A stretch of 60,162 bases of DNA, counting the filler. It is 7 parts of 7 records of this genome, joined end to end, with 100 filler letters (N's around TTAATTAATTAA, not from the genome) between each part and the next. Parts side by side here need not be neighbours in the genome. Positions count along the whole stretch, not along the records: positions 11,169 to 22,097 come from DRR723986_8412; 6 more parts are not named here. One strand, 5' to 3'. Position numbers and translations under genes: made by a program. Below the pieces are notes generated by a model. It was not told the DNA's origin. It made no database searches and was given only the letters and a program-made list of their open reading frames with translations. Position 1 is the first letter of the stretch. Each line of letters opens with the position of its first letter. Shown here piece after piece: positions 6,433 to 29,065 of this stretch.

Positions 6433-6460
6433 CACGCTGTCCTCCGTTTTCCTACCTACC

Positions 6461-7689: not shown

Positions 7690-8186
7690 CCCCATTTGAT
7701 ATGGTCGTTACGCCCAAGGGGTTGCGATTTCTGGGCCGCACCCTGCCCTGTTCGCTTGGTAAAGGGGGCCGGACCAACGACAAGAAAGAGGGCGACGGCG
7801 CCACCCCTGTCGGCACTCTGGAAATCGTCGGAATGCTCTATCGTGCGGATCGCATCACCGCACCAACCCCTTGGGCCGAGGCGATTGGCCCCCGCGATCT
7901 GTGGTCAGACGACAGCGAAGATCATGATTATAATCAATGGGTTCGCGCGCCATACATGCACAGCCACGAACACCTGCGACGGGCGGACCCGCTCTATGAT
8001 TTGGTGCTGATCACCGATTGGAATTGGCGCGATACCGTGCCGGGTCGCGGTTCCGCGATCTTAGTGCACCAGTGGCGTCGCCCCGGCTATCCGACCGAAG
8101 GTTGCGTTGCCCTGTCTCGCGAAAACCTACGATGGGTGGCCGAACGCGTCACGCCCGGCACCCGCCTGATTATTCCACCGGCTTAA
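7686..8186 (+). CDS. L,D-transpeptidase-like (YkuD) family protein
   Basis: KKEGDGATPVG and GSAILVHQW...PTEGCVAL (His/Cys motif). Overlaps the ribA stop. Confidence 0.8.
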   Translation: MTPFDMVVTPKGLRFLGRTLPCSLGKGGRTNDKKEGDGATPVGTLEIVGMLYRADRITAPTPWAEAIGPRDLWSDDSEDHDYNQWVRAPYMHSHEHLRRADPLYDLVLITDWNWRDTVPGRGSAILVHQWRRPGYPTEGCVALSRENLRWVAERVTPGTRLIIPPA

Positions 8187-8829
8187 CCCGATCCCCGAAA
8201 ATAGCCGACCCGACGCGCACGTGCGTTGCGCCCAAAGCGATGGCCTTTTCAAAGTCGCTGCTCATGCCCATCGACAGCCCGGTCAAACCGTTGCGCGCTG
8301 CAATCTTGGCCAGCAGCGCAAAGTGCAACGCCGCTTCTTCCTCAACTGGGGGAATGCACATAAGCCCTTGAATCGGCAGGTCCATTTTCACGCAATCCGC
8401 GATGAATGCATCCGCATCCGCGGGTAATATTCCCGCCTTTTGCTCTTCTTCGCCGGTGTTCACCTGCACAAACAAATCCGGACAGGCCCCGCGTTCCTGC
8501 GCCAAACGCGCCAAGGCAGCGGCCAATTTCGGACGATCCACCGAATGAATAGCATTGCACAGCTCAACAGCCTGCCGCGCTTTGTTGGTTTGCAACGGTC
8601 CGATCAAATGCAGATCAACATCCGCAAACTGTTCTTTGAAATTCGGCCATTTCCCAGCCGCTTCCTGCACCCGGTTTTCGCCAAAACACCGATGGCCCTG
8701 ACTTAGAACCGCCTCAACCCGTTCATTAGGTTGAACCTTGGAAACCGCGATCAAATGGACCGACCCAGCGTCCCGACCAGCGGCCTGTTCCGCAGCACCA
8801 ATGCGGGCTTGAATCTCTTGCAGCGACAT
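8170..8829 (-). CDS. yggS: PLP homeostasis protein YggS
   Basis: LIAVSK, FGENRVQE, HLIGPLQTNK, LSMGMSSDF, GATHVRVGSAIFG. Confidence 0.95.
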   Translation of the reverse strand: MSLQEIQARIGAAEQAAGRDAGSVHLIAVSKVQPNERVEAVLSQGHRCFGENRVQEAAGKWPNFKEQFADVDLHLIGPLQTNKARQAVELCNAIHSVDRPKLAAALARLAQERGACPDLFVQVNTGEEEQKAGILPADADAFIADCVKMDLPIQGLMCIPPVEEEAALHFALLAKIAARNGLTGLSMGMSSDFEKAIALGATHVRVGSAIFGDRVKPVE

Positions 8830-8876
8830 ACGCGAACCTCATCTTCGTTTGCCAGCAGAGAAACACCATGTAGCCC

Positions 8877-8910
8877 AAAAAGAAAAGGGCGAGCTCGAAA
8901 GAGCCCGCCC
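8877..8910 (-). terminator. Intrinsic terminator of the porin gene
   Basis: Minus strand GGGCGGGCTC-tttc-GAGCTCGCCC followed by TTTTCTTTTT. Confidence 0.8.
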
Positions 8911-8936
8911 CAAAGTCACGCTAAGCGTGGCTTAAC

Positions 8937-9962
8937 TTAGAAGCTGAAGTATACACCAGCCTGGAATGTGTCGTTGTCGTTAGACGCACGACGGTAACCA
9001 GTTTCGAAAGACGCACCGCCCCCGAGATCGTAAGAGTAGTGGATACCGTAGCTTTCGCCTTCGCCCAAGTTAGAGCCGGCGATGCCGTCGCGGTTGTCGC
9101 CACGACCGTTTGCTACGTCAGCTGCGGAAACCGCATCTTCCGAAGTTACGAATGCAACGATTTTCGAAGCTGCACCGATTTCGTAGTTGCCGTACAGGCC
9201 CCATTTGCCGATGCCGTCGTTGTCTGCGTATGCAACGCGAACACCGAACTGACCCAGGTCACCCTGAACAGAGATGATTGCTTTGTCTTCCCAGGCCAAG
9301 TCGGAGTCCTGGTAAGAACCAGCAACAGTCCAGTCGCCAAAGGTGTAAGCCATCATGATGGCGGCACGAGCAGCTGCGTTTGCAGCACCGTTACCAACAC
9401 CAGGGTTTACAGTGCTGTCGTTACGCTGCGAGTACGAAATGTGACCGGTGAAACCGTTCGCAGAGTACAGAGCTTCAACACCGTTTACGCCGGTACCAGC
9501 TGAGCTGTATGCATCCCAGTTGAAGTATTCGTTGCTGACGTTACCAACGTGCGAAACGAAACCGGCACCATCGATACCCAGACCAGCAGTACGGGTTTCG
9601 AGGTATGTACCAGGTGTGTTTTCAACCGCACCGATGATGTTACCAACGTTAACGCGGAAACCCTGGTAAACTACGCCAAAACGTGCGCCGTTGAAGCCTG
9701 CGCCGCCGGAGACGTTGTCACGGCTTTCGGCCTGTGCGCGGAAGCGTGCGTCGAATGCAACACCGGAGTCAGTTTCAGCTGACATGTCGAACTGCAGACG
9801 CAGACGGCTGGTGATGGTTGTGCTGGAAACGCCGTTAACGTTGCTGTCGTTACCGTCGTTGTAATCCAAACCAAAACGGCCGTAACCGCTGATACGAACG
9901 TCTGCTGCGGCAACGCTGGCTGTTGCGATCAGCGCGGTCGTTGCGAAGAGAACTTTTTTCAT
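8937..9962 (-). CDS. Rhodobacter-type trimeric porin
   Basis: Signal peptide MKKVLFATTALIATASVAAA, then DVRISGYGRFG. C-terminal AGVYFSF. Strongly biased codons. Confidence 0.9.
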   Translation of the reverse strand: MKKVLFATTALIATASVAAADVRISGYGRFGLDYNDGNDSNVNGVSSTTITSRLRLQFDMSAETDSGVAFDARFRAQAESRDNVSGGAGFNGARFGVVYQGFRVNVGNIIGAVENTPGTYLETRTAGLGIDGAGFVSHVGNVSNEYFNWDAYSSAGTGVNGVEALYSANGFTGHISYSQRNDSTVNPGVGNGAANAAARAAIMMAYTFGDWTVAGSYQDSDLAWEDKAIISVQGDLGQFGVRVAYADNDGIGKWGLYGNYEIGAASKIVAFVTSEDAVSAADVANGRGDNRDGIAGSNLGEGESYGIHYSYDLGGGASFETGYRRASNDNDTFQAGVYFSF

Positions 9963-10306
9963 CTTGTTTTCCCTCGGTTTTCAAATCAGATGCCCAAACC
10001 GGAGAATCCAGCGTGGGTATGTCATGGGGTTTCGCCCTTTCACCCCCGTTTTGGCAAGACCTCCGACTGGCAAGCAATGCATTGGCCTCTAGGATGGTGC
10101 AGCTTTGCCACAGTCCCCACGCCTCCCCCGGTCAAAACATACCTTATACGCATTCGCGCGCGCGATATTTGCGGTTCCCGCGTCCAACCTTCCTCTGAAA
10201 TGCCGAAATGCCAGCTTCGTTAGAACCTGCGCCTATATAGAGGCTTGCTCCGCTAGTCAGGCTTGGGTAGGACAGAGCCTACAAAATATAGTGGGATTGC
10301 CTGACA

Positions 10307-11068
<762 letters not shown>

Positions 11069-11168
11069 NNNNNNNNNNNNNNNNNNNNNNNNNNNNNNNN
11101 NNNNNNNNNNNNTTAATTAATTAANNNNNNNNNNNNNNNNNNNNNNNNNNNNNNNNNNNNNNNNNNNN
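11069..11168. other. Artificial contig linker
   Basis: 44 N + TTAATTAATTAA (stops in all six frames) + 44 N. Confidence 0.98.
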
Positions 11169-14100
11169 CAGCCGGCGGAGGCACAATCGCCACCGTCAGG
11201 CTTGTTGAGCCCATATCACCTGAACCGTCATGCGTGAATGTAAAGGTTGCGATTGTTGTCGTATTACCATTATAAGTAATGCCGACGGCGTGTGCATCGG
11301 TCGCAGCAATAGGAGACAGGCTAAACGTCGTACCCGAGTTGATCACGATCTCAGGGATGTCAACTGTCATTGTTACAGTTGTCGTAAAGAAGAAGATCGG
11401 GAAAACATCGTTACCTGTAGCCGTAATGTGGTTGAATCCGTCAAACGAACTCAGGCTGACAGTAAACGTTGTCGTCGGTGTTGGTACGAGCGTCGTGTTG
11501 CCGCCATTGAAACCGTCAGTTCCAATGCCTTCACCGAAGTTACCACCAATCACACCGCTCATGGTACTGATACCAAGCTGGTTCGCCGTTGGAGCCAAAA
11601 CGGTAATTGATACCGTAGAACTCGCAAGCTGCACACCATCTGATGTAGCATTTTCAAGTGTAACGTTTGCACCACGCGCAAAGACGTCGTTGTTGTCGAT
11701 GACAAAGCTACCGGTAGTGGTAGCGGTTCCCGGGCCAAACTGTGGGAAACCTAGCGTTGCCGCAGAGGCAGTCATTGTATTGAAGCCCGTGAATACATCA
11801 ATGTTAGTCAGGACTTGCTCTTTTGGAGAAGAAAGTCCCGAAGCATTAAATGTACCGGATGTTACCAACAACTCAGCTGTAACACGTTCATCATGATATC
11901 CAGCTGGACCAATGATTAAGCGGTTACCCAATCCAGTCGCATCGTTAGCATTAAATCCATCGTTGGCATCTGAAGCCGTCGTTGAATACGCAAACGCTGT
12001 TGGAGGCGCAGGACAAACCGTGATCGTCACAGATGTTGACGAAAAGACATTCGTCGTTGCATCTGCAAGAGTCAGCGTGATTGTCGTTGGATTTTCACCA
12101 AGCCATTCAAATGTCAGACCACCGGACAATGTAACATCGCCGGACACAACCTGTGTGGTTGCTCCCGTTGTTGATCCAGGGAAGTTAGGATTGCCAAGCA
12201 GGCGGCTCCATACACCCGTCGTTGCAACGAGAATCGGTCCATTGTTTGCATTAGTTGCAGGCGGATTGATAAACAAGTTCAAGTGAACTGCATCTGTTGT
12301 AGTTGACAAACAGTTCAGCGTCGAGAAGAGGCTGAAGCCGATGTTATTCACAACGCCAGATGTCACCTGCAGGATTGTTCCGGTCGTAACCAGATCAGTA
12401 CCTGTTGTTGAACTCGTTGAAAACGCGAGAATCTCAGCTGGTGGAGGCAACAGAGTCACAGAAAGTGACGTACTGGCCAATCCATCAACGCTGAGTTCAA
12501 GTGTTCCAGTTGTATTTGCACCACCAGTATATGAGAACGTCAATGTTGTCTCATATACAGCGGCACCGTCGGTAAGAACAACTGTTCCTACAGTCTCACC
12601 ATCAAAAGTGAAGAGACCTGTTGTAGAAGTAGTTGATACCGCGCGCAAGTTGTCAAGTGCGTTCCAGGATGCAATCGTAACTGATACATCCTCTGTTTTA
12701 CCTGTCATCTGCACATTCAGATCACCGCCTTGAAAACCATCCGTAGCAGTTGTTGCCGTGGAGGAAAAGGCTACCAGAATTGCTTCTGGAGGTGAAAGCA
12801 GAATTGTTGTTGTTGTTGAACCAACTTCTCCACTTGGATCATCAATCGACAGCGTCACAACCTGTACTACCGCACCGGTGTAAGAGATCGTGATATTGTG
12901 ATTTGTCGTTGCGGATGCGTTGCTGAAAGTCAGCGACGTTCCCGAAACAAGAACTGGAGGAGTTGGATTAACACCTACCGGCGTCATCGACAGAGTCACT
13001 GTCGTTGAGTAACCCAACGGATCGTTACCGTTTGTGGCCGTCAGTACATTACAGAAGTCAAATGTACCGAGGTTCAAAGTAAGTGTTGTTGTTGCAGCAT
13101 CCATGTTAGCCGTTGTTCCACCAACGATTCCGTCAGTTTGAACGCGGCTTACGGTGCTAAATGCAAAGGCAATATCTTCTGGAACGAGAGCAGTAAATGT
13201 TGCGGACGTTCCTGCCATATTAGGATCGGCAAGCGATACCGTAATTACAGTCGAGCGTTGACCATTAAAGGCGACCATAACAACATTTACATCGGACGAA
13301 TTAACCGTACCGGCAGTCGTTGTTATGAAGTCTGCTGTTGTTGCAGTTGCACCACCACCCAAGAAATCTGGAACGGAGATAACTTCAACCGATGTAGCGC
13401 CTGTAGCGCTATATACGGCCGAGAAATCTGCAGTCGTTGCAGTTCTATCGTTCAGAGGGTTGAAGGTCGTTGCAAAAATGCCTATCCCATATGCACGAGC
13501 CGTGCCAGCAGGTGACGTTCCCGTCGTACATAAGAATGGGAACGAACCGTTTGTCGTCGTGTTAGCTACAACGAATCCGTTTGAATTCGTTGAAGCAGTT
13601 GACGAAAATGCAAGTCGGTCAGCAGGAATTGGCGAGACCGTTACGTTAACAACGGTGGAAGCCAGAATCGCACCGTTTACTGTCGCCAGCGTTACTGGAA
13701 CGGTTACAGGTGCTTCACCACGATAAAAGAATTGTACCGTAGCGGTTGAAAACGCATCCAGATCGAATGCGTCAATGCTTGCTCCAGTAGTCCCGGTTGC
13801 AGTCGTAGCGTTAAACGATACGCCACTGGACGTTGCAACCTGAAACTCCAGTTCGGTGTCTTGTGTGATACCGGCTGGGAAATTCTCATCATTAATAGTT
13901 TGGTAAGCCACCTCAACCAAGTCTTGCGACGTTGGTGTTAATGTCTCCCATCCACTCGTATTATAGGGGTTCAGGTCCGGCGCTGCCGAAGTTGAATATG
14001 CCAGCTTAGAAGCAGGCGGCCCTACAATGATTTCTGCAGTGGTTGTTAACACAGGGTTGTTACCACCCGTGATCTGACGGATACGCATTGTAACCGTCAC

Positions 14101-14988
14101 CGACGATGTTGACGTCGAGATGACAGTCAGCGTCGTGGAGCTGGTGAATTGGCCGGCACCTGAATTATAGGTGGCCTGTGTAGAGCCAATAAAGGAGACG
14201 AACTGAGCGTTCGTGCCTTCCAGCTGGTACTGAATTGTTTGGACACCACCATTAAAACAGGAGACCGAATAGTCATTCACCTGCATGGAGGTCATAATCG
14301 AAACAAACGGGATTCCATTACCAACGCGTGGCGTTGGACTGAAAGCTCCGTTAGTACCCACTTCTCCGTTAATCGAGCCGTAAACAGCTTGGCATGTTTG
14401 AGCTTCAGCAACATGTGGTGTTGCAAGACCAAACATGAAAATCGCAAAAACGCCAAAAGCGCCAGCTAATGCGGCGCGTCTTGTAAACGTCGTTGCGATC
14501 GATTTTGGTTGACATCGGGATGGTTCCGATGCTTGGGTGATACCGCCGGAGCCCCGCGGCAAGGTATTGGGCAACGCACGACTTCGACCGCCAGGGGCGG
14601 CAGATGCATCACGTGGCGTTGCGCCGAGAACAGTCATACGATTCAGAAACGAAGATTTCTGCCGTGCTGAAACAGCACCAACAGAAGCCAGCGCACCGAT
14701 CGTTGCTGTCCCCAACAAACGAATCAGGTTGAGTAGCAGAGCAACCATGGGTATTGAAACTCCAGTAATTGATGAGTTGAAGGTTGTATTTTTTGATCGA
14801 AGTTGTATCAAAGAAGTGGGTGTATCCGAGAATGTATTTCGATCCCGACAGTTTTCATTTCCTTTATTACCGGATAGAAATGAGCACCACGAGTTGATTG
14901 CCGCCAGGATAGCGGTAGATGTAAGTTGGTTTGCCGAGTTCCCTGAATGGGTATTATCTGAGTGTGAACTGTAACTGTCGCCAGTCAT
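11169..14988 (-). CDS. Giant Thr-rich secreted/surface protein with tandem ~115-150 aa beta-rich repeats; 3' end cut, start uncertain
   Basis: Open for >1270 codons. TRRAAL + hydrophobic stretch + AEA-Q signal at ~14490-14398. Recurrent ST(T/S)(V/L)x(V/I)T(V/L)xPPxAxxxAFST...DGF motif. Candidate starts are 14988, 14748 and 14637. Confidence 0.8.
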
Positions 14989-15856: not shown

Positions 15857-17053
15857 TTATTGGCCAATTAGCCCTAATTCGCGCCCTACCGACGCAAATA
15901 CCTCCACCAGGCGATCGATATGCTCAGGCTGATGCGTTGCCATGTAACTCGTTCGCATCATACTGAGATTCGGCGGCACTCCAGGTGGGATGAAACAATT
16001 CACAAATACATTGTGGTCGTAGAGCTTACGCCAAAACTGGAGCGCCGTATCCACGTCACCAACGATGACCGGTACAATTGCCGTCGGACTCTCGACAACA
16101 TTGAACCCTAATTCAGCAAACTCCCTGCGTACACGGTCCGCCACTTGAATCAAGGTCTGAACGCGCTCAGGCTCCTGCTCCAGTATGTCCAGAGCCGCCA
16201 ATGCCGCCGCACACGAAGGTGGAGTGGGGCTCGCGCTAAATATCAGCGCGGGCGAAATATGCTTCAGATAATTGATCACGCGCTCAGGCCCGGCAACAAA
16301 TCCACCCAAAGAGGCAAATGTCTTCGAAAACGTGCCCATCGTCATGTCCGTGCGGTCAACCATCCCATAGTGACTGGCCGTTCCACGGCCACCTTCACCT
16401 ATCACGCCCGTAGCATGTGCATCGTCAACCAAAACACGTGCCCCATGGGCTTCCGCCAGCTCTACCAGCCGCGGAAGGTGCACCAGCTCTCCGCTGACGG
16501 AAAATACACCGTCAGTCACAATAAGTTTGTTGGCGCCCTCAGGAATACGCTTCAGTACACGCTCCAAATCGTCCATATCGTTGTGACGATAGCGCACAAA
16601 TTCAGCAAAGGCACCCTTGGCCATCATGGCAGCATTGATAATGCAGGCGTGGTTTTCCTTGTCTGAGATGAGATAGTCCCCCTTAGTGACCAAACCGCTG
16701 ATGGTGCCTAATGCGGTTTGGTACCCAGTGCTGAACAACAACACAGACTCATATCCCAGAAACTTGGCCAGACGCTCTTCCAGCTCTACGTGAAGGTCGA
16801 TTGTCCCCGTCAAATAACGCGACCCGGAACAACTGGTGCCATACTTCTCCAAAGCCTGCCGCGCTGCGTCCTTGACGCGCTCATCAGATGTCAGACCCAG
16901 GTAATTGTTTGACCCCGCCATGATAACATCGCGGCCCTCCATGCGCACTACAGGCCCCTCATTGTCCTCTACCACACGAAAATATGGGTAGAGGCCCAAG
17001 GCCTTGACCTCGTCGGCACGGTTAAACTGACGGCACTTTTCAAATATATCCAC
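15857..17053 (-). CDS. spt: Alpha-oxoamine synthase, probable serine palmitoyltransferase
   Basis: [44 protein letters not shown] (PLP lysine). The N-terminal YPYFR pattern resembles Bacteroidota SPT. AGGAG RBS before GTG 17053. Confidence 0.7.
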
Positions 17054-17255
17054 GTGTACACTCCTGCTTTCACTAATCGCAATCGTCAAAATTACGAAAA
17101 TATTTCCGTATTCAATCCTTCACAGCACAGCGGTAACAGGCTTGTTTGACGCGCCATCGGCACAATAATTTCGTGCGAGATGACTCTATAGCTCGTATCG
17201 AAAAAATCCTCGCAGACTGGTGCGCCTCCTTAGACATGATTGCAAAATATACCGT

Positions 17256-19643
17256 ATGACGGCTACAAACGATACTCTGACCGACATTGACCGCAAAGCT
17301 CGCGAACACGAATCCATTCCTCGCAGGCTTTCCGTATTGCCTTTGCGCGATATCGTAATCTTCCCAAACATGATCTTTCCGATCCTGATTGGACGTGATT
17401 CATCCCTGAAAGCCGTGGCTAAAGCCCTGGAACGGGATAAATTTATCTTCCTGACAGCGCAAAGGGACGTCAGCGTGGACGAACCCGGCAAGGACGACCT
17501 GCACCGCTTCGGCACCGTCGCAAAAATCATCCAGCTGATTCGCCTGCCTAATAACCTGTTAAAAATCCTGGTCGATGGTGTTGCTCAGGGCCGCGTGCGT
17601 CGCTACTACAACATCAAAGACCACCTGGATGGAGACATCGAGTTAAACAACTCAGGAGCAGGTGAAGAAACGACCACAGAAATGCAGGCAATGATCCGGC
17701 ATGCAATTGAACTCTTTCACAAATATGTTAAAGTCAATCGCAACGTGCCGCCCGAAGTCAGCATGGCGTTTGATAACATCGACGACCCTTCGCGCAAGAT
17801 GTATTATGCCGCTGCCAACATCCAACAGGATGTAGCCGCCAAACAGCGCATACTCGAAAAATTCTCCCTCAAAGAACAATACTTCGAGTTAATTTCAATA
17901 TTAACATCTGAGATCGAAGTTCTCGAAATTGAGCAGGACATCGACGTCCGCGTTCACGATACAATTCAAAAAGCACAAAAGCGCTTTTTCATCCAGGAGC
18001 AAATTCGTGCGCTGCAGCAGGAACTCGGCGAAGACGATGACGCATTCCCCGAGTTAAGCAAACTGCGTGAACGCCTCGAACAAGCCGAACTGCCCGAAGA
18101 AGTTAAAGCGCGCGCCGATGAAGAATTCCAGAAGTTAAAAAAGATGCCTATGATGTCGCCCGACTTCGGCGTCATCCGCAACTACCTGGACTGGATCAGC
18201 AAAGTCCCCTGGTCCAATCGCACCGACGACCACCTGGATGTTAACCACGTCCGCGAAATCCTCGACGCCGATCACTATGGGCTCGAAAAAGTTAAAGACC
18301 GCATCCTCGAATACATTGCCGTCTTAAACTTAACACAAAACATTTCCGGTCAGGTCCTGTGTTTTGTAGGCCCACCGGGAGTTGGTAAAACATCCCTGGC
18401 CAAATCCATCGCGCGCGCCGTCGGCCGTAAATTCGTGCGCATCTCCCTCGGTGGCGTTCGCGATGAAGCCGAAATCCGTGGCCACCGCCGCACCTACATC
18501 GGCTCAATGCCCGGCAAGATCATCCAAAGCATGAAACGCGCCGAAACTGTCAACCCCCTCATCCTCCTTGATGAAGTTGACAAAATGGCGATGGACTTCC
18601 GTGGCGACCCATCCTCCGCGCTTCTTGAAGTACTGGACCCTGAGCAAAACACAGCATTCAACGACCACTACCTGGAAGTTGATTACGATCTTTCAAATGT
18701 CTTATTCATTTGCACGGCAAATGTTAAATACGACATTCCTGCGCCGCTTCTGGACCGCATGGAGATCATCGAGCTCTCATCTTACCTGGAGCCTGAAAAA
18801 ATCCAAATCGCGCGGCAGCACATTATCCCGCGCCAGCTTAACAAACAAGGCCTCGATAAACTTGAGATCAATCTTAAGGACAAGGCCCTGCAAACCCTGG
18901 TGCGCGAATATACACGCGAAGCCGGTGTACGGAACCTCGAACGCCAGATCGCTTCCGTCTTCCGCAAAATTGCCAAACAGGTCGTCAGCCGCATCGGCAA
19001 AACCAAACGCAAAAAAGTTAAATACGAAATCAATGCCGAAGACGTTAAGTCCCTGTTAAAAGCTCCGCCATTCCCCGAAAAACGCCGCGAGTTAAGCGAC
19101 AAAGTTGGCGTCGTAACAGGTTTGGCCTGGACCAGCACCGGTGGTGACGTCCTGCCCATTCAGGTAACCATGATGCCGGGCAAAGAGCGTTTAACATTAA
19201 CGGGTCAACTCGGTGATGTCATGAAGGAATCCGCTGCAGCCGCACTATCTTATGTGCGCTCCAACTGGGAAGCCCTCAGCGTGCCGCAGCACTTTGCCAA
19301 AGACCGTGAAATCCACCTGCACGTGCCCGAAGGCGCCATCCCCAAAGATGGGCCGTCCGCAGGTGTCACCATGACCATGGCTCTCATCTCAGCGGCAAGC
19401 AATAAGCCGGCACGCGGTGACGTAGCTATGACCGGTGAAATTACCCTGCGTGGCGATGTCCTGCCTATCGGTGGCTTAAATGAAAAACTCCTCGCCGCCA
19501 AACGCATGGGCATGCGCACAGTCCTGATACCCAAAGACAATGAGCTGCAATTGACGGACATCAAAGAAGAAGTCAAAAAAGGCCTGGAAATCGTTCCTGT
19601 AGCGGATGCAATGACGGCCCTGCCCTACGTCTTCAAGAAATAA
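17256..19643 (+). CDS. lon: ATP-dependent Lon protease
   Basis: LPLRDIVIFP, Walker A GPPGVGKT, LLDEVDK, PKDGPSAG (catalytic Ser), GGLNEK. Confidence 0.97.
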   Translation: MTATNDTLTDIDRKAREHESIPRRLSVLPLRDIVIFPNMIFPILIGRDSSLKAVAKALERDKFIFLTAQRDVSVDEPGKDDLHRFGTVAKIIQLIRLPNNLLKILVDGVAQGRVRRYYNIKDHLDGDIELNNSGAGEETTTEMQAMIRHAIELFHKYVKVNRNVPPEVSMAFDNIDDPSRKMYYAAANIQQDVAAKQRILEKFSLKEQYFELISILTSEIEVLEIEQDIDVRVHDTIQKAQKRFFIQEQIRALQQELGEDDDAFPELSKLRERLEQAELPEEVKARADEEFQKLKKMPMMSPDFGVIRNYLDWISKVPWSNRTDDHLDVNHVREILDADHYGLEKVKDRILEYIAVLNLTQNISGQVLCFVGPPGVGKTSLAKSIARAVGRKFVRISLGGVRDEAEIRGHRRTYIGSMPGKIIQSMKRAETVNPLILLDEVDKMAMDFRGDPSSALLEVLDPEQNTAFNDHYLEVDYDLSNVLFICTANVKYDIPAPLLDRMEIIELSSYLEPEKIQIARQHIIPRQLNKQGLDKLEINLKDKALQTLVREYTREAGVRNLERQIASVFRKIAKQVVSRIGKTKRKKVKYEINAEDVKSLLKAPPFPEKRRELSDKVGVVTGLAWTSTGGDVLPIQVTMMPGKERLTLTGQLGDVMKESAAAALSYVRSNWEALSVPQHFAKDREIHLHVPEGAIPKDGPSAGVTMTMALISAASNKPARGDVAMTGEITLRGDVLPIGGLNEKLLAAKRMGMRTVLIPKDNELQLTDIKEEVKKGLEIVPVADAMTALPYVFKK

Positions 19644-19656
19644 TCAGCATAAAACA

Positions 19657-19694
19657 TCAGGCGTTCAGCCGCTACCAAACTGCTGAACGCCTGA
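19657..19694 (+). terminator. 13-bp perfect hairpin after lon (terminator or stabiliser)
   Basis: TCAGGCGTTCAGC-N12-GCTGAACGCCTGA. The U-tract is weak. Confidence 0.55.
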
Positions 19695-20184
19695 ACTCTT
19701 ACAGCAACATTCCGCCTGCCGCGCTTGCCTGTACCACACAAAAACCCCACCTTGGGCAACAGCCGCCGGGCAGCACACACCGCCACCTGGGCGGACCGGC
19801 AACCGGCAATCGACTAAACGGAATCTCACTCCGCATCCCAACAATAAAAATACTCTGGACCCGGTGCCTGGTAGCTGCCGACACAAAAACTAGCAAAAAG
19901 CTCAAAAAGCAAGCCGGAGTAATCGACGGCGAAGCAGGCACGCTCAGAAACAGGGCTACAAGCACAAAAGCCAGAACAGGCAGCACGGGGCAGCTTAATA
20001 CACGGCCGGCCTCACCTGCTGCCCTTACAGTGCGTTTTAGCTGCACTTGGCGACATAATGCCCACAAAATTGTCATGACAACACATTTGAGCCGAGAAAA
20101 TCGGTCTGGGATGCAACTCAGGGAGAACTGCCCACTCTTCCGTATATTGCCTCCATCGTTCGTGCAACAGCTATGGAAAGATTT

Positions 20185-21405
20185 ATGCAGAGAATTTACC
20201 TCCCGTTCTTGTGTTTGCTCCTCTCAGGCCTCGCCGGCACTACTAAGGCCATAGCGCAGGACGAGCAACCCGTCGCCAACCCCCTGGCGGTTGAACTGAC
20301 GCGCATGTTGGCTAAGGACATCTTTGAGCTCAACAGCATTCCCTTCCTGGAGCCACTTGTTGTAGCTGCTAACGCCTCAACGAATGCAGGTTTCTATCGC
20401 AGCGCATGGATCCCGAAGGAAGACACACTGTACTTCCGCTTCAGCGTCGTCGCAATGGGTGGTTTTGTCGGCGAAAACCGCCAATTCTACACTCCTGCCC
20501 TGCCAACGAATCCAGGCGAACCCAACCCCAATCAAAGTTTGGTTGAGGCAGTCTACAACGAAATGCTCAGCATTTTTGCCAGAGGTGTCGCATCCGGCGA
20601 TATTAACATCCCACCTCAGGCTGCGACAATTTTTGGCCCCACCGAACGCGCAAAGTTTACGATTCCAACCGACTACCTTTTACAGGAAGTTCAGGAGTCA
20701 GACTTCTACAAAGGTTTCCCCTTCCTGCAAGATGATATCGATGATGTTGTTAAAGCACTTCCGCAGGACCAACAGCTACCGGGTGGTGCGGACATGAGCG
20801 TGATTGTTGCCGCCGTACCCCAAATTGAAATTGGTGCTTTTATGGGAACTGAAATTCTGCTCCGTTACATTCCACCAGTCCGCTTCGATGACAACGTCGG
20901 CGACTTAACATTTTTTGGCACAGCCATCCGTCATTCCATTTCGCAATACTTAGGCGACACACCGCCACTGGACCTGGCAATTCAGGCCGCATATCAAACT
21001 ACTTCGATCGAAAATACGATTGGCGTAACCGAAGCTAAACTGGAAGCGAATGCAGACATCTTTAACTTTAACATTCACGGCAGTAAAACATGGGACGGAT
21101 TTACAACCTACGCCGGCCTGGCATTCGAGCGCATCGAAGTAGCAACCGACTACACCTATGCACTTCCATTCGAGACACAAATTTCGCTCAACCTTGTTAA
21201 ACGCATCGATCCCGACACATATGTCGTGGAGGAACCAGATTACCCTGGTGACACGGTCCCGCAAACAAGTAGCGTTACAATTGAGGACAACAACCTCAAA
21301 GCAACCATCGGCGCAATGTACACTCTCGACCCCGTCAGTATTTTCATCGACTACAGCATCAGCGAGTTCGACATCTTATCCGGCGGCCTGATGGTATCGT
21401 TCTAA
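20185..21405 (+). CDS. Outer-membrane beta-barrel protein (DUF6588-like)
   Basis: Signal peptide ending AIA-Q, VPQIEIG...TEILLRYIPP, alternating beta strands, C-terminal GGLMVSF. Family name recalled. Confidence 0.65.
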   Translation: MQRIYLPFLCLLLSGLAGTTKAIAQDEQPVANPLAVELTRMLAKDIFELNSIPFLEPLVVAANASTNAGFYRSAWIPKEDTLYFRFSVVAMGGFVGENRQFYTPALPTNPGEPNPNQSLVEAVYNEMLSIFARGVASGDINIPPQAATIFGPTERAKFTIPTDYLLQEVQESDFYKGFPFLQDDIDDVVKALPQDQQLPGGADMSVIVAAVPQIEIGAFMGTEILLRYIPPVRFDDNVGDLTFFGTAIRHSISQYLGDTPPLDLAIQAAYQTTSIENTIGVTEAKLEANADIFNFNIHGSKTWDGFTTYAGLAFERIEVATDYTYALPFETQISLNLVKRIDPDTYVVEEPDYPGDTVPQTSSVTIEDNNLKATIGAMYTLDPVSIFIDYSISEFDILSGGLMVSF

Positions 21406-21438
21406 GTCACACTTAACATACCAATTAACAATTCTCAC

Positions 21439-21474
21439 AAGGCGTAACCCATTCAAGGTTTCGCCTTTCTTTTT
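21439..21474 (+). terminator. Intrinsic terminator
   Basis: AAGGCGTAACC...GGTTTCGCCTT followed by TCTTTTT. Confidence 0.7.
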
Positions 21475-21539
21475 ATGGTCACATCTTGCCGCGCCCAAGT
21501 CCAGCCGACAAATGCCAATCCAGGCAGCTGCACAAGACC

Positions 21540-21605
21540 GCTTTGAGCCCTCTGCTGCGCATCGTTCTCAGGCTCTTTGATTTTCTTGTTAGTCATCGGG
21601 AGTTA
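21540..21605 (+). repeat. Intergenic repeat element, copy A
   Basis: GCTTTGAGCCC-N15-TCTCAGGCT...TGA...TTCTTGTTAGTC. Aligns with copies at 23113 and 31691. Confidence 0.6.
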
Positions 21606-22097
21606 AGCCACCAGTTCATTCTCCATCAGATGCTTTGCAGATGCTTTGCAGACTGCCCGTCACAAACAGCAGGCAGTTCACCAAACCCCAGACCCTGGCT
21701 TCGGGTCTTCTGCCTTCTAAACTCTGAAAACAACGACTACCAGCATTTTGGTCAAAAAAAAAGACGCCAGACTTAACACAAACGGTTAACAACCGCCTAA
21801 CGTCGCTTGACCTTCACCGGGGCTAAAGGACTTGCATTATTTGTGTTCCGGCTTTCGGCATTAAGAATCAACGAAGACAATCTTACGCCAACTGTCAATT
21901 TTAACATCTAAACAATTTGGCCACCAGCAATACATTCAAAAACTTCTACCCAAAAAGCTGAGAGCTGTGTCGCAAAACCAGAATTTCAACTGACAGAATT
22001 CGATCTGAATAGTTGGCGATTATTGGAGTGATGTTACGTAAGATTCCTTGGATTCAAATCATAAAGTCACCCGGATCCAGCCCTAAGGGCTCGACCC

Positions 22098-22197: not shown

Positions 22198-22489
22198 CGA
22201 AGGTGTTGAAGGCATGGGGCGTGTGCTGTTTGAAGCGATGGCTTGTGGCACAGTTGCAATTGGCAGCGATATCAGCGGTGTGCGCGACGCGATAACGCCC
22301 GAAAGTGGTGTTCTTTTTGATTCGCAGTCGCCACAGGCAATTACAAGTGTGGTGCAAGCATTAATCGCCGATCCGGATTTGCAGGCGCAGTTAACACGCG
22401 GCGGCCTGGAGCGTGCACGTACAGTGTTTGGGATTAAGCGGCATGCGCAATTAGTTCAGGGTGTTTATTCACGTTTGCTGGAAACCTGA
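22198..22489 (+). CDS. GT4 glycosyltransferase, C-terminal fragment
   Basis: EGMGRVLFEAMACGTVAIGSDISGVRDAI (E-X7-E motif). Confidence 0.88.
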
Positions 22490-22671
22490 CTCGCTCCAAA
22501 AAAAAAGATTGTTGGCGCTGCGGAATTGCCGCTCACATTTGGGCGTTGAAGTCTGCGCTTTAATACCTCTGTTTTACACATGCGCTTGTGTGTGTTTAAC
22601 GTCAATGACGGCGGCATCTAAACCATGATCGCCGGTGTTAACGATTTGAAACTTAATGTTTGGAGTTTGAT

Positions 22672-23079
22672 ATGAGTTCTGCTTTCCCCGCCGAAGGTAT
22701 GGCGCTGACGAATATTCTGGTTGTTAATGATATGAGCGCCGCGCGCGATTTCTACCGCGATGTTCTGGGCGCCGAAATTCACCGCGAGTATGGCGGAACT
22801 TCCGTTGTAATGCAGTTTTTGGGCGCGTGGATTTTACTTGTCACGGGCGGCGGCCCCACTTCCGATAAACCGGATGTGCATTTTGGAGCACCCGCAAGCC
22901 CAAATCAGGTGAGTCACGCTATGACGATCAGAGTGCCGGACTGCAGAGCTGCATTTAAAACACTCAGTGCGCGTGGTGCTACGTTCTTAACAGATCCGGT
23001 TGAGAGTGACTATGAAATCCGTGCGTTCTTTCGCGATCCGGCTGGGCACCTGCTGGAAATTAGCGAAGCCAAGGGCTAG
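22672..23079 (+). CDS. VOC/glyoxalase family protein
   Basis: ILVVNDMSAARDFYRDVLG...IRVPDC...RAFFRDPAGHLLEI. GGAG RBS. Confidence 0.85.
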   Translation: MSSAFPAEGMALTNILVVNDMSAARDFYRDVLGAEIHREYGGTSVVMQFLGAWILLVTGGGPTSDKPDVHFGAPASPNQVSHAMTIRVPDCRAAFKTLSARGATFLTDPVESDYEIRAFFRDPAGHLLEISEAKG

Positions 23080-23112
23080 AGCGAGTTGTTAAACAAATTG
23101 TTTTTGTGCGGC

Positions 23113-23186
23113 GCTTTGAGCCCGCTTCTCCACGTGCCGTGTCGCTTTGGTCTCAGGCTTGGTGATGTTCTTGTTTGTCGCTGAGT
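23113..23186 (+). repeat. Intergenic repeat element, copy B
   Basis: GCTTTGAGCCC-N27-TCTCAGGCT...TGA...TCTTGTTTGTCGCTGAGT. The last 18 nt are identical to copy C. Confidence 0.7.
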
Positions 23187-23430
23187 TGCCGGCCGCATTT
23201 GACGGGCGGTGCGCAATCTTGGGGCTGACTGTTGTGATGTGGACTGGATGTGAATTTGTTTAACGAATCATTTGACTGAACTGCCGGCGGGTTGAGGACT
23301 TGACGCAGACTTAACAATTTGAGTCCTGATTCTCAAAATCTAACAAAAGAAAAAAAAACAAGCCACCGCGAAGCAAGAGGGCGAAGTGCTCATGCCCATT
23401 GTTAAATATCAAGCTGCCAGACTGAATCGA

Positions 23431-24663
23431 TTAGTCGGCGGTCGTAGAGAGGCTGCCCGCCTCAATTAATTCAGTGACGGCACGAAAGACGAGGTCGTTG
23501 GGAATGTCGTTGACATGCTCATTGCTCGGGCTGAGAACCTGGCGCCAGTCCACACCGTACGGATGCCATTCACAGGCTGTTAAGTATTTGTGCACAAGTA
23601 AGGCGATAGGACGTCCCGTTGCGGCTGCAACGTGCACCGGAGCTGAGTCCACACCCAAAAGGAATTCGCAGCCGGCGACAATTGCGCAAAATGTTAACCA
23701 GTCGTGTTCGATAGTTTTGCAGTTGGGAGAGTTGACCGCCTGGCGAATTTGTTCTGCATCATGACGGCGCTGCGGGCCACCACTTATCAGGAATACTAGA
23801 TCGGGCCAGGTGTTTGTTAAACGCTGTAGTAAATCTATGCAGGTCTCGACTTTCCAGGCTTTGTCGGGCATGTGTGAGGCGATGTTAACAACTACGTAAG
23901 GTTTGCCGCTGTTGCGCATATGTACGCGGTCGCCAGTGTTGATACCGTGAATCTCGACGTTTTGATTGGCGAGTGAGAAGCGCAAACCGTTTGATTGTGC
24001 AAACTCAAGCGCATTGCGTGCATGTGCCACGTCGAAAGAAATGTAAGGGCGCGCGGCAAAATTGGCCTGTTCACCGGCGTCAATTGAGCCGCGTCCAAGC
24101 GCCAGCAGACGATCGACGATATGTTCGCGCCAGGGCTGCATCGGAACCTGCAGCTGGAAGGCCTTGCCGTAGATGTGTTTGCGTCCGGGATGCAGAAAAG
24201 TCGCCTTGGGCGCTTTGGGTGCGGCCAGCCGGGAGATAAAAGCGGCCTTGCTTAAACGCGTGAAGATCGGAGCCAGGACCAGATCCACCGGCGCTTCGCG
24301 CCGCAGACTTAGAGCCGACATCCACGAATTGTGAAATGTATACTGCGGGTCGATTGCCAGCTGACGGTCCACATTGGGGTCGTAGCGCGTGGCGATATCA
24401 TTGCGATAGGAACTCACGACAGTAATGCGGCATTGCGGTGCGCAATTTTTAATCCAGCGCATGAGGGCCGTAGTGACGATGTAATCGCCGAGCGCATCGT
24501 AGCGCAAGAGGAGAACATGCTGCAAACTTTGTGCGGGAATCGGAGCAGTCACGGGAGCGACGCGACTGCCCAGCATGCCAAACAATGCCGACCGTAGCGG
24601 CTCGCGGCGCGGAGCAATAATGCGTCTTTGGGAGGGTTCCGTGCCGCTGGAATTCCCTGGCAT
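23431..24663 (-). CDS. GT9 (heptosyltransferase-like) glycosyltransferase
   Basis: VLLLRYDALGDYIVTT and LLGVDSAPVHVAAATGRP. Start uncertain (24663 or 24747). Confidence 0.85.
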   Translation of the reverse strand: MPGNSSGTEPSQRRIIAPRREPLRSALFGMLGSRVAPVTAPIPAQSLQHVLLLRYDALGDYIVTTALMRWIKNCAPQCRITVVSSYRNDIATRYDPNVDRQLAIDPQYTFHNSWMSALSLRREAPVDLVLAPIFTRLSKAAFISRLAAPKAPKATFLHPGRKHIYGKAFQLQVPMQPWREHIVDRLLALGRGSIDAGEQANFAARPYISFDVAHARNALEFAQSNGLRFSLANQNVEIHGINTGDRVHMRNSGKPYVVVNIASHMPDKAWKVETCIDLLQRLTNTWPDLVFLISGGPQRRHDAEQIRQAVNSPNCKTIEHDWLTFCAIVAGCEFLLGVDSAPVHVAAATGRPIALLVHKYLTACEWHPYGVDWRQVLSPSNEHVNDIPNDLVFRAVTELIEAGSLSTTAD

Positions 24664-24849
24664 TTGATCCGGCCGTTGAAATCCAGACTGGCGTGCCGGA
24701 TGTGTTTGCGGCGAAAAGAGCTGAGCTTCCTGAAAATACTGTCCCATAGTTTGCCAATTACGAAGCCCAGGCCGGAATATTTTTCGTAATTTCCGGGCTT
24801 GCGGCAAATGAGTAATGGCAGTCTGGAAAATTATGGCATGGCGGTGAAC

Positions 24850-25911
24850 ATGAGCACATCCCGAATATTGATTACTGGAGCTAACGGCGAAATCGGGCAC
24901 AGTCTGATTGAACAGATTTCTCAGGAGAGTCCCGAAACGGACATCGTAGCGCTTGACCTGCGCGCCCCCGAGCCTGCCCTGGAAGCTAAATGCGAACAAT
25001 TTATTGTTGGTGACATCACTGACAAGGCGATCCTGGCGCAGCTCCAGTCCATCGACGTGGATGTGATTTTTCATCTGGCGGCACTGCTGTCAACGGGCGC
25101 TGAGCACGATCCATTGCTGGCGCACCACGTCAACGTTAACGGAACGCTTGGATTGCTGGAGGTGGCGCATCTGACGGGTGTGCGGCGCCAGAAGCCGGTT
25201 GTATTTATGTATCCCAGTTCGATTGCCGTCTATGGTGTTCCGGACCTGGAGACAAAAGCCGCTTCCGGTGCGATTGCCGAAGAGCTTTTTACCGAGCCGA
25301 TAACAATGTACGGCATTAACAAGCTTTATACGGAGCAGCTGGGGCGCTACTTTACGAAACACTTCAAACTGCTGGAAGGCGATCGTCAGGACCGTTTCGT
25401 CGACTTCCGCGCGTTGCGCTTTCCGGGGCTGATTTCGGCCTTCACAATTCCGTCGGGCGGGACGAGTGATTTTGGGCCGGAGATGATTCATGCCGCCGCC
25501 CGCAACCAGGTATTTGAAAGTGATGACAGTTACGAATGTTTTGTGCGCCCCGATGCACGCATTCCGTTTATGGCAATGCCCGATGCTGTGATGGCATTGC
25601 GCCGCCTGGCGGCTGCACCGCGCGCCGGCCTGACGCGCAGCGCCTACAACATCACGTCATTTGCACCCAGCGCCGAAGAGTTTGCGGAAATGACGAGCAA
25701 AGAATTTCCACGTAGCCGAGTTGAGTATGTTCCGCACGTTCATCGTCAGGCGATTATCGACAGCTGGCCGGAAGATACTGACGACGCCGCTGCGCGCCGC
25801 GATTGGAATTGGCTGCCTGCTTACGATTTTCAGCGTTGTTTTGTTGAATATCTGGTTCCCAACATCGTGGCTCACTACCGCAAAAGCGCAAGCGCTGTTG
25901 CCGACAGGTGA
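24850..25911 (+). CDS. Extended SDR, probable L-threonine 3-dehydrogenase (GalE-like type)
   Basis: [31 protein letters not shown] (YxxxK), [27 protein letters not shown]. Confidence 0.75.
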
Positions 25912-25987
25912 TTCTGAATCCAGGCCTGCCGCAGTATCTGCTGCGGCACATAAGAATTCGACCCGCAAGGGTGTGAGAGAGGGTGAA

Positions 25988-28081
25988 GTGGCACACGTGC
26001 ACACAAACGCATTGATACATGAAAAGTCGCCGTATCTGCTGCAGCATGCGCACAATCCGGTTAACTGGTTGCCCTGGGGTGATGCGGCTTTTGAGCGCGC
26101 CCGCACAGAAAACAAGCCGATTTTTCTGAGTATCGGATATTCCACCTGCCACTGGTGCCACGTGATGGAACACGAGTCCTTTGAGGACCAAACCATGGCG
26201 GCGCTGCTCAATCGCTTTTTTGTGTGCATTAAAGTTGACCGCGAAGAACGCCCCGACATCGACGCCACGTATATGACCGTATGCCAGATGGTAACCGGGC
26301 ATGGCGGCTGGCCGCTCTCCGTGTTTTTGACACCCAACAAAGATCCTTTTTACGTCGGCACGTATTTTCCGCCGGAAGATCGTCACGGTCGTCCCGGCTT
26401 CGGCACCGTTCTGCAATCGATTGCCGCCAGCTGGCAAAACGACCAGGCCAAAATCGAAAAGTCGGGCAGCGCGCTGCTCGCCCAAATCCGCGAGCAGATA
26501 GACGCAGCCAAAAGCAGCGAAAAGGTGAGCGTCAAGATTTTTGACCTGGCGCTGCAGCAGTTCGCACAGCAGTATGATGCCGAGCATGGTGGCTTTGGCA
26601 CACGCCCCAAGTTCCCAACGCCGCACAAAATCAGTTTCTTGCTGGGACTTTACAATCGTAGCGCTGATGCTGAAGCCCTCAAAATGGCGGGAATGACGCT
26701 GCAGGCGATGCGCCGCGGCGGCATGTATGATCATATCGGTTATGGCTTCCACCGCTACAGCACAGATGTTAAGTGGCTGCTGCCGCACTTTGAAAAAATG
26801 CTCTACGATCAGGCCGGAATAATGCTGGCCTATACGCAGGCGTTTCAGGCGACAGGCAAAGCAGAATACAAGCGCACGGCAATGGAAATTGCCGAATATG
26901 TGCTGCGCGACATGACGGCACCCGACGGAGGTTTTTATTCAGCTGAAGACGCTGACTCCGAGGGGCGCGAAGGCAAGTTTTACGTTTGGACCGAAGCCGA
27001 GCTGCGCGAAGTGTTGACGTCAGCCCAGTTTGACCTGTTTAAGCGGGCATATGCAATCGAAGCCGAGGGCAACTTCGTGGAAGAAGTCGCCACGCATAAA
27101 ACCGGCGAAAACATCCCGCATCAGTTAAGCAGTGTGGCAGAGATGGCCGAAGAGCTTAAACTCGACCCTGCTGAGTTAGAGAGCGAGCTGGAACTAATCC
27201 GCACACATCTGTTCAGACTGCGTGAAAATCGGATTCATCCGCATAAGGACGACAAAGTCTTGGCAGACTGGAACGCTTTTATGATTGTGGCTTTTGTGCA
27301 GGCGGCACGTGCGTTTAACGAGCCGTCACTGCTGGAAGCAGCGCAGCGCTCCTGGGCTTTTGTAGAAACGAAATTGCGCGGCACTGATGGCCGCCGCCTG
27401 CATCGCTATCGCGACGGGGAAGCGGGGATCGAAGGCTTTCTGGATGACTATGCTCTCGGAGCCTGGGCGGCGCTGGAACTCTACCAGGCGACGGGTGACG
27501 CGGAGTACTTGTCTGCGGGCATTGGCGATTGTGACGTGTTGTTACGTGACTTTGCCGACAGGACTTCGGGCGGATTTACTTTCAGTTCGGCGCGCAATGA
27601 GGCGCTGCCGCTGGAATCGCGCGAGGCCTATGACGGCGCCATGCCTTCCGGTAATTCGCTGGCGGTACACGTACTCGGGCGTTATGGCAAACTCCTGGGG
27701 CGTCAGGAATATGTTGATGCTGCTGTGGCCGCCGTCGAAGCATTTGCGGCGGGAATTGAACGCCATCCACTGGGTTATGCGTTTATGCTGCAGGCGTACG
27801 ATTTCCTGATGCGCGGCAGCCGCGAAATTGTGGTGGCCTATGGCGCTGACAGCGCAGACACCAAAAAACATTTGGACGTCATTGATGCCGCCTGGCTGCC
27901 ATTCTCCGTGGTGGTGCACAACGACGGCTCAGATGAGATTCAACAATTGATTGAACACACACAATATCAGACGCCTCTGGGGGCAGAGACGGCGAGTTAC
28001 GTTTGTGTTAACTACGCCTGCCAGGCTCCCGTCAGTGACGCCGCTGAGTTGGGTAAAGCTCTGATTGCTTCCGGCAATTAG
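25988..28081 (+). CDS. YyaL/SPATA20-family thioredoxin-domain + six-hairpin protein
   Basis: [61 protein letters not shown]. Start set at GTG 25988. Confidence 0.92.
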
Positions 28082-28165
28082 AGCTGTTCCACCGGCGCCT
28101 GTCAGAGTGCTAAACTGTGTGCGTTCTCCAGTTTAACCCGTGAACCCATTAGTGAGTGCCGCTGA

Positions 28166-29065
28166 ATGCTAAATCAGCTTGTTGCTAAATCGCTGCCGCT
28201 CGTACCGAAACCTCTGGTCCGCATTATTGCAATGAAATACATTGCCGGAGAAACAGTTACTGATGCGATGAACACTGTAGCGGAATTAAACGCGCTCGGC
28301 GCGGTGGCTACGGTCGATGCTTTGGGCGAATTTGTTAAAGTCCGCGAAGAAGCCATTCGTGAAACGGCAACGGCGCGGACGGTGCTGGACGGCATTGCCG
28401 CTAACAACCTGCGCTCGGGCATTTCTGTTAAACTCACGAGCCTGGGCCTTGAAATCGAGAATGAGTTCTGCTATCGCAACGTTCGCAGTATCGTTGAACA
28501 CGCACGGCAAGTAAATTGTTTTGTGCGCCTGGACATGGAGAACTCGCCCTTTACCACCGACACGCTGGCACTGTACCGTCGGCTGCGTGAAGACGGCTTT
28601 GACAACCTGGGCTTTGTCCTGCAGGCTTATATGCGCCGCAGCTACCAGGACATCAGTGATTTGAGCGATCTTAAACCGTCGGTGCGCCTCTGCAAAGGAA
28701 TTTACCGCGAAGCCCCTGAGATAGCGTTCCAGGGCCGCGAAGAAGTGCGTGACAACTACAAGCTGCTCCTGCGGCATCTGTTTGACAGCGGCTGTACAGT
28801 CGGAATTGCCACACATGACGAGCCGCTCATTGAAGATGCACGCGAATTGCTTAAACAACGTGCCGACCTGGTCGGAAAGTCTGAATTTCAGATGTTGTAC
28901 GGCGTGCGTAACGAAAAACGCGATGAACTGCTGGCCGGCGGTAACAGACTACGCGTCTACGTGCCTTTCGGCGCGGACTGGTATGGTTACTCCGTCCGCC
29001 GCCTGCGCGAAAATCCACAGATTGCCGGGCACGTGTTCCGCGCATTCTTCTCCAAAAAAGGCTGA
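28166..29065 (+). CDS. Monofunctional proline dehydrogenase
   Basis: YIAGET, SVKLTSLG, RLDMENS, VLQAYMRR, VRLCKGIY, IATHD, EFQMLYGV, VYVPFG, RRLRENP. 299 aa, no P5C dehydrogenase domain. Confidence 0.92.
   Translation: MLNQLVAKSLPLVPKPLVRIIAMKYIAGETVTDAMNTVAELNALGAVATVDALGEFVKVREEAIRETATARTVLDGIAANNLRSGISVKLTSLGLEIENEFCYRNVRSIVEHARQVNCFVRLDMENSPFTTDTLALYRRLREDGFDNLGFVLQAYMRRSYQDISDLSDLKPSVRLCKGIYREAPEIAFQGREEVRDNYKLLLRHLFDSGCTVGIATHDEPLIEDARELLKQRADLVGKSEFQMLYGVRNEKRDELLAGGNRLRVYVPFGADWYGYSVRRLRENPQIAGHVFRAFFSKKG

Follow-up and report, generated by a model that had tools for sequence, protein, structure and literature searches.

Known iterated words and the DNA analysed

The uptake signal sequences (USS) of the Pasteurellaceae and the DNA uptake sequences (DUS) of the Neisseriaceae are 9–12 nt long, far more over-represented than the 5–10-fold seen in the DNA described here, and words of this type can build up by drive without benefit to single genes. 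In Escherichia coli, Dcm/Vsr very-short-patch repair makes CCWGG commoner and its T-containing neighbours rarer. The cyanobacterial highly iterated palindrome HIP1 (GCGATCGC) is reported in PMC5861425 to be 15- to 300-fold over-represented, and PMC4390886 and PMC5861425 describe its cause as long unclear and link it to DNA-recognising enzymes. Here we report on TTAAC(A)/TTAAAC, an iterated word that is specific to one lineage, acts at the level of DNA and resembles HIP1 and USS in kind, though it is much weaker, in a window of 60,162 bases (the whole stretch of DNA analysed, seven joined contigs) in which a sequence-only reading had noted frequent TTAA in lon, the gene of the ATP-dependent protease La (17256–19643, + strand; Pfam Lon_C, LON_substr_bdg and AAA). 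We are confident that TTAACA and TTAAAC, built on a core TTAAC, are enriched about fivefold in part of the window, independently of strand, frame and coding status.

The likeness to HIP1 and other cyanobacterial highly iterated palindromes lies in a short word that is hyper-abundant in one lineage, occupies several frames within genes by way of synonymous sites as well as intergenic DNA, and is absent from relatives. HIP1, however, is an 8-nt palindrome, whereas the word here is 5–7 nt long, asymmetric, has a one-base length variant and does not favour its palindromic form; its ∼5-fold excess (heptamers up to ∼10-fold) is one to two orders of magnitude below the 15- to 300-fold reported in PMC5861425. 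With USS and DUS it shares an asymmetric word, near-equal orientations (TTAACA 27/24; TTAAAC 19/13) and presence in genes in all usable frames as well as in intergenic DNA. Uptake sequences interact with protein sequence according to PMC2817400, and such an interaction is not seen in Lon here. The word is without the defining features of HIP1 and USS/DUS: it is no palindrome, not 9–12 nt long and not 15- to 300-fold enriched.

The contigs lie at 1–11068 (contig 1), 11169–22097 (contig 2), 22198–31818 (contig 3), 31919–41722 (contig 4), 41823–47508 (contig 5), 47609–54364 (contig 6) and 54465–60162 (contig 7). They are joined by spacers of layout N44-TTAATTAATTAA-N44; the inner letters were read in one spacer (11113–11124), and six pairs of N runs give the same layout at all junctions. 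Because the spacers are artificial and add TTAA (203 raw occurrences over the whole window vs 185 inside contigs), they were left out of the TTAA counts.

An over-represented word in three pieces of the window

We compared each open reading frame (ORF) with 300 synonymous-codon shuffles that preserve its protein and codon counts. The gene lon has 22 TTAA in 2388 nt, 19 of them as GTTAA or TTAAC, against 10.1±2.4 in shuffles (0 of 300 equal it). These lon counts had been given exactly by the sequence-only reading, as had its codon tallies (13 of the 14 TTA codons precede an A; before AAN, Val uses GTT seven times and GTC three), and the excess that it reported elsewhere is borne out in rluA (10 vs 4.2±1.5) and in the non-ribosomal peptide synthetase (NRPS) gene (23 vs 10.8±2.3). 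Over all ORFs of a contig, TTAA reaches 50 vs 23.9 in contig 3 (z 7.3) and 25 vs 12.7 in contig 7 (z 4.8). It is depleted in the ORFs of contig 1 (8 vs 18.5, z −3.4), contig 5 (4 vs 11.6) and contig 6 (9 vs 15.1), and lower, not significantly so, in those of contig 4 (10 vs 14.2, z −1.6). The earlier description gave contigs 1 and 4 ∼9 and ∼8 TTAA; each has 10, and the ORFs of contig 1 are depleted rather than neutral. Two genes in the left half of contig 2 show no excess, as had been noted from about one TTAA in the spt-like gene (1 vs 4.1) and near-random expectation in a giant gene (13 vs 14.0).

Motif-rich DNA is here defined as three pieces (17101–22097, 22198–31818 and 54465–60162; 20,316 nt with 127 TTAA sites). 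The first, the right half of contig 2, holds lon, a DUF6588 gene and a non-coding tail. The second is contig 3, with genes for a GT9 glycosyltransferase, a DsbH-like thioredoxin protein, a proline dehydrogenase, an EEP-family protein and rluA (30204–30998), and with 66 TTAA against a zero-order expectation of 27.5. The third is contig 7, with an NRPS fragment and a 3-hydroxyacyl-CoA dehydrogenase (Pfam). The four 6-mers counted below (TTAACA, TGTTAA, TTAAAC and GTTTAA; hereafter the four 6-mers) occur at 4.6/kb in the first piece and 5.4/kb in the second.

Within motif-rich DNA, over-representation against codon shuffles (strands pooled) climbs with word length. TTAA is the top tetramer (106 vs 51.7, 2.05-fold), GTTAA/TTAAC the top pentamer (85 vs 31.9, 2.67-fold) and TTAACA/TGTTAA the most enriched hexamer of all (51 vs 9.9±2.9, z 14, 5.1-fold), followed by TTAAAC/GTTTAA (32 vs 8.6), TTTAAC/GTTAAA (31 vs 10.2) and TTAACT (20 vs 5.7); among heptamers, CTTAAAC (14 vs 1.4, 10-fold) and TTAACAA (15 vs 2.0, 7.4-fold) bring the excess to 7–10-fold. 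Counted by site, TTAAC is found at 88, TTAACA at 60 and TTAAAC at 38 of the 127 TTAA, and TTAAC or TTAAAC stands on at least one strand at 107 of them, close to the wording TTAA(A)C of the earlier description. The base before TTAAAC is G or C in 34 of 38 cases and never T. Flanking positions past about +3 hold little information. The sites show no fixed spacing or clustering (12 pairs within 15 bp vs 9.6±3.0; four pairs at 6 bp, P 0.20 over all distances). Polar chromosome words such as Chi and KOPS lean strongly to one DNA strand. Here the plus:minus counts of TTAACA are 12:7, 9:21 and 9:5 in the three pieces, and TTAAAC in contig 3 leans the opposite way (14:8); no coherent skew is apparent.

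Several other words deviate in the same DNA. Its genes are short of GAAC/GTTC relative to codon shuffles (119 vs 165.1, z −4.8) and likewise of GAACC/GGTTC (12 vs 30.3), which could reflect avoidance of a restriction or modification target. Avoidance of GAAC was rejected as the main cause of the TTAAC excess, since TTA-ACA (Leu-Thr), which has no GAAC alternative, is used in 12 of 42 cases vs 1.3 expected. Motif-rich DNA also holds a second AT-core word, with CAATTG at 16 vs 6.5, AATTG/CAATT at 76 vs 42.7 and enriched extensions (e.g. AATTGCC), and GCGC occurs 237 times vs 165.7.

A DNA-level effect made by synonymous choice

On the sense strand, the word and its reverse complement are both in excess over codon shuffles, with TTAACA at 27 vs 6.2 and TGTTAA at 24 vs 4.2, TTAAAC at 19 vs 3.8 and GTTTAA at 13 vs 5.0. 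All frames that do not create a stop are used by the TTAACA/TTAAAC words. In motif-rich genes, the four 6-mers occupy 83 of their 244 synonymous opportunities (34%), against 18.2 predicted by codon usage, and occupancy in a single phase reaches 15/29, 17/30, 8/15 and 10/16; in contigs 1, 4, 5 and 6, 9 of 343 such opportunities are taken. Each of the 11 ORFs that reach 130 aa in motif-rich DNA takes part, with occupancies of 0.14–0.53 (lon 12/31), and the word is present in non-coding DNA too. In the same contig as lon, occupancy is 6/59 in the giant ORF (significantly low) and 1/12 in the spt-like gene (marginal).

The enrichment is very probably made by synonymous choice (TTA before A; GTT, TTT and CTT before AA) with the protein left unchanged. 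TTA makes up 46 of 149 Leu codons before A and 23 of 484 before C, G or T; for Val, GTT is chosen in 26 of 38 cases before AA vs 85 of 378 elsewhere; and for Phe, TTT in 16 of 20 vs 135 of 237. Since motif-rich genes otherwise avoid T|A codon junctions, this is not a general junction effect. A build-up at synonymous sites, like that of HIP1 and uptake sequences, had been proposed from the letters, and the survival of the excess in codon-preserving shuffles agrees with it.

Non-coding DNA tells the same story. In 3.5 kb of it, some of which may hold small ORFs, TTAA occurs 31 times vs 12.9±3.4 in dinucleotide shuffles and the four 6-mers 21 times vs 3.8±1.9 (5.5-fold), values that none of the 300 shuffles reach. 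An intergenic excess had been reported for contigs 2, 3 and 7. It stands for contigs 2 and 3, on which it rests, and not for contig 7, whose non-coding DNA amounts to 174 nt and is free of TTAA.

These observations bear on a translational explanation, in which a codon-pair or codon-context preference (e.g. TTA decoded better before A) would give the codon biases just listed for Leu and Val. On the sense strand, however, the reverse complement is just as enriched (TGTTAA 24 vs 4.2), the same DNA word arises from two codon phases and non-coding DNA has the same excess. The antisense and non-coding excesses together exclude translation as the explanation, and we regard it as very unlikely. An artefact or chance effect, arising from mixing in the bin, a handful of unusual genes, amino-acid composition or errors of assembly, carries a still smaller, practically negligible probability. 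The window is indeed a mixture, the spacers do add TTAA and two genes of contig 2 are without the word; but shuffles that preserve protein and codon counts are still exceeded at z 10–14, every one of the 11 ORFs that reach 130 aa carries the word, the lon genes of relatives show nothing under the same treatment, and errors could not restrict themselves to synonymous positions of intact ORFs. For the motif itself an artefact is contradicted, and mixing accounts only for the differences between contigs.

The window as a mixture of organisms

The seven contigs come from at least three organisms. Contig 4 (31919–41722), in which TTAA is not enriched, has 97.46% DNA identity across all 9804 nt to Marinobacter nauticus DSM 50418 (L241), and its RNase G shows 100% amino-acid identity. 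Contigs 1 and 5 look alphaproteobacterial (Rhodobacter-type), judging from matches to SorX, which we take to be a Rhodobacter small RNA (sRNA). The stronger of these (5620–5692, − strand, contig 1; Rfam RF02784, 93.9 bits vs a gathering score of 46.6) sits directly downstream of an OmpR-type regulator gene (5746–6462; Pfam), and the second, weaker one (43602–43668, + strand, contig 5; RF02784) scores 47.3 bits against the same threshold. The tetranucleotide (TETRA) profiles of contigs 1 and 5 correlate weakly (r 0.32). A Marinobacter origin of contigs 1, 5 and 6 was also considered and rejected, two Marinobacter genomes giving short weak DNA matches to contig 1 and none to contigs 5 and 6.

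The motif-rich pieces lead elsewhere. Lon of contig 2 shares 62–65% identity with proteins of Ignavibacteria, Kapaibacterium, Bacteroidota and Chlorobiaceae metagenome-assembled genomes (MAGs) and ∼50% with gammaproteobacterial Lon; its best amino-acid match was 62% in searches of genomes and metagenome contigs and 65% in 401 genomes of the phylum sampled around G004. The DsbH-like protein of contig 3 has its best match in a Kapaibacterium MAG (51%), and the spt-like product is 69–78% identical to proteins of the Kapaibacteria/Ignavibacteria group. Tetranucleotide z-score profiles of the right half of contig 2 correlate with those of contigs 3 and 7 at r 0.65 and 0.64, and contig 3 with contig 7 at r 0.70; after all words containing TTA or TAA are dropped, the three pieces still correlate at r 0.59–0.69, and at no more than 0.48 with every other piece. 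We consider it highly probable that one uncultured organism of the Kapaibacteria/Ignavibacteria group, Bacteroidota, is the source of the right half of contig 2 and of contigs 3 and 7; by these comparisons, nothing closely related to it appears to be present in the collections searched.

The contig-to-contig patchiness of the motif arises because the bin mixes organisms and is not patchiness within one genome: the bacteria of the other contigs are, with little doubt, simply without the signature, which makes the word look patchy. The patchiness that the sequence-only reading had noted is mostly a mixture of organisms (Marinobacter contig 4, the SorX contigs and the TETRA profiles). The word behaves here like a TETRA- or Karlin-type species signature, in that its bias is common to the organism's three contigs together with the rest of the tetranucleotide profile and sets these contigs apart from the co-binned DNA. 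It differs from such signatures in that its top word stands at 4.7 vs at most 3.0 in 25 comparison sets and fills a third of the synonymous opportunities. In practical terms, the word cleanly separates this organism's contigs from the co-binned Marinobacter and alphaproteobacterial DNA, flags the bin as contaminated and could help to recover the rest of the organism's genome.

The left half of contig 2 (11169–17100) is without the signature. It holds a giant surface-type ORF (11170–14988, − strand) that runs open off the contig end (1273 aa read), has a low third-position GC content (GC3, 0.42) and has no Pfam match at E≤1e-5, and the spt-like aminotransferase gene (15857–17089, − strand). A chimeric contig 2 was rejected, as the best matches of the spt product fall in the same bacterial group as those of Lon. 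The spt-like protein (15857–17089) is 75% identical to its counterpart in Kapaibacterium genome JAXLVN01 and Lon (17220–19643) 63% to that in the same genome, and this order of identities is the reverse of that expected for these two proteins. That spt is closer than Lon to JAXLVN01 hints that the spt region was acquired. The giant ORF and perhaps spt may be recent arrivals.

Relatives and calibration

We calibrated the excess with the top hexamer of 26 sets, namely the motif-rich DNA, 22 random loci of at least 20 kb and three sets from other contigs of the window. The top-hexamer ratio is 1.6–3.0 (z 4.1–10.5) in the 25 comparison sets and 4.7 (z 13.2) in motif-rich DNA, where even the second word reaches 3.8 (z 10.6). 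The excess is real, and the most extreme measured among the sets tested.

No comparable word excess was found in 398 loci of at least 4 kb, for which the observed/expected ratio of TTAACA+TTAAAC under an order-2 model has a median of 0.84 and a maximum of 3.6 (7 vs 1.9), nor in 76 spt loci of the Kapaibacteria/Ignavibacteria, where it is at most 1.79. The three pieces of the window give 3.1–5.3 on 23–52 occurrences. For lon itself, 11 of 16 orthologous loci gave an ORF (plus strand only; L329, L332, L334, L337 and L338 left out), two of them short or doubtful (L328 and L331). Under the same treatment these 11 relatives' lon genes take 0–2 of 8–36 opportunities (occupancy 0–0.07), and the lon of the window takes 12 of 31. 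The number of potential sites, 31, equals that of the nine reliable orthologues (26–36); the word has thus not forced changes on the protein. A literature search at title and abstract level turned up no bacterial example of such a word, with a Caulobacter transcription paper as the possible exception.

What could favour the word

The flanks of the sites speak to the idea, put forward with the first description, that a methyltransferase specific for palindromic TTAA or GTTAAC (MseI/HpaI/HincII type) drives the excess through a repair bias of the very-short-patch kind. TTAA is the top tetramer (106 vs 51.7) and GTTAAC exceeds codon shuffles (12 vs 4.0), and HIP1 offers a precedent tied to orphan methyltransferases in PMC4390886. 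The two halves are nevertheless not favoured together: GTTAAC occurs 30 times vs 41.8 predicted from its 5-mers (0.72 times), and CA on both flanks (TGTTAACA-type double flank) is found at 3 of the 127 sites. ATTAA/TTAAT is hardly enriched, with Ile as ATT before AA in 8 of 15 cases vs 163 of 297 elsewhere. This lack of cooperation between half-sites counts against the view that a palindromic TTAA/GTTAAC methylase drives the excess. Moreover, sites of the TTAA type are usually modified to m6A, which does not give rise to mismatches by deamination. Dcm/Vsr is comparable in that, through repair, it too could raise the frequency of a methylase target, but its hallmark, depletion of transition neighbours, is not found here: against codon shuffles the transition neighbours of TTAACA stand at 0.49–1.34 (none beyond z −1.4), and the core-breaking transversion neighbours are alike at 0.47–1.10. 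That no specific neighbour is depleted argues against a Vsr-like repair drive. The palindromic proposal fits poorly, and we judge it improbable.

A neutral genomic signature deserves more weight. Under this explanation a context-dependent mutation or repair bias of the lineage makes or keeps TTAAC-type words, with no protein and no function involved. The excess is indeed alike in synonymous sites (5.1-fold) and non-coding DNA (5.5-fold), the protein sequence is unaffected, the word is short and degenerate with its hexamer mostly accounted for by its 5-mers, and all genomes have over-represented hexamers (ratios up to 3.0 in the 25 comparison sets). Less easily explained are the heptamer excess of 7–10-fold, which simple neighbour effects rarely give, the position of motif-rich DNA as the most extreme of the 26 sets, and the neighbours of TTAACA that lose the TTAA core, which stand at 0.24–1.34 with none beyond z −2.3 and with transitions like transversions. 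We regard a neutral signature as a possible but somewhat doubtful explanation.

The climb of the excess with word length to 7–10-fold makes a protein acting at an asymmetric site likelier than a plain neighbour-dependent mutation bias. Such a protein, reading an asymmetric site on duplex DNA, would favour TTAACA/TTAAAC and the words would then accumulate. Three kinds of recogniser can be envisaged: (i) a DNA-uptake or recombination drive of the USS/DUS type, which would be the likeliest of the three though itself short of even; (ii) a methyltransferase of a non-palindromic site, Type III/IIG-like or orphan, to which repair or regulation is linked, which would come next; and (iii) an abundant nucleoid protein, which would be the least likely. 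Recent arrivals or fast-evolving genes (i.e. the giant surface ORF and perhaps spt) would not yet be furnished with words. No methyltransferase was found among the 26 ORFs of the window scanned against Pfam. Taken as a whole, the statement that one Kapaibacteria/Ignavibacteria-group organism combines a ∼5-fold word enrichment with a recogniser of an asymmetric site seems to us evenly poised.

Several findings count against the recogniser. The evidence comes from ∼20 kb of this organism, of which contig 7 is placed with it by signature alone. The excess falls far short of that of HIP1 and of USS/DUS, and such an excess, in a short word of two lengths, could also come from context-dependent mutation bias; TTAACA is only 1.19-fold enriched given its overlapping 5-mers, so that information beyond ∼5–6 nt is weak. 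The nearest relatives sampled are without the word, which gives no sign of age or conservation, and the Lon protein is unshaped by it, unlike the interaction of uptake sequences with the proteome described in PMC2817400.

A bolder form of the recogniser reading may be put forward tentatively. TTAAC(A)/TTAAAC might be an undescribed iterated word, at ∼1 per 200 bp, that is kept through specific recognition, either by an uptake receptor or by an orphan methyltransferase with a non-palindromic target, and might represent the first USS/HIP-like self-marking in Bacteroidota/Chlorobiota, young enough that the nearest sampled relatives are without it. If a recogniser exists, the word would add a further, independent example of self-marking by a short genomic sequence to those of the cyanobacteria, Pasteurellaceae and Neisseriaceae. 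Because the nearest relatives are without the word, comparison with them could date its origin and single out its cause among uptake, methylation and binding.

Other features of the motif-poor contigs

The motif-poor contigs show a recurrence of their own. CGTTAACG occurs four times (9649, 9835, 34748 and 50852) in contigs 1, 4 and 6, giving 8 both-strand counts vs 0.4 under an order-2 model; this may be coincidence, the contigs being from different organisms. Contig 6 also contains, at 47995–54362, two large RTX/FG-GAP repeat proteins of 986 aa and at least 1039 aa.

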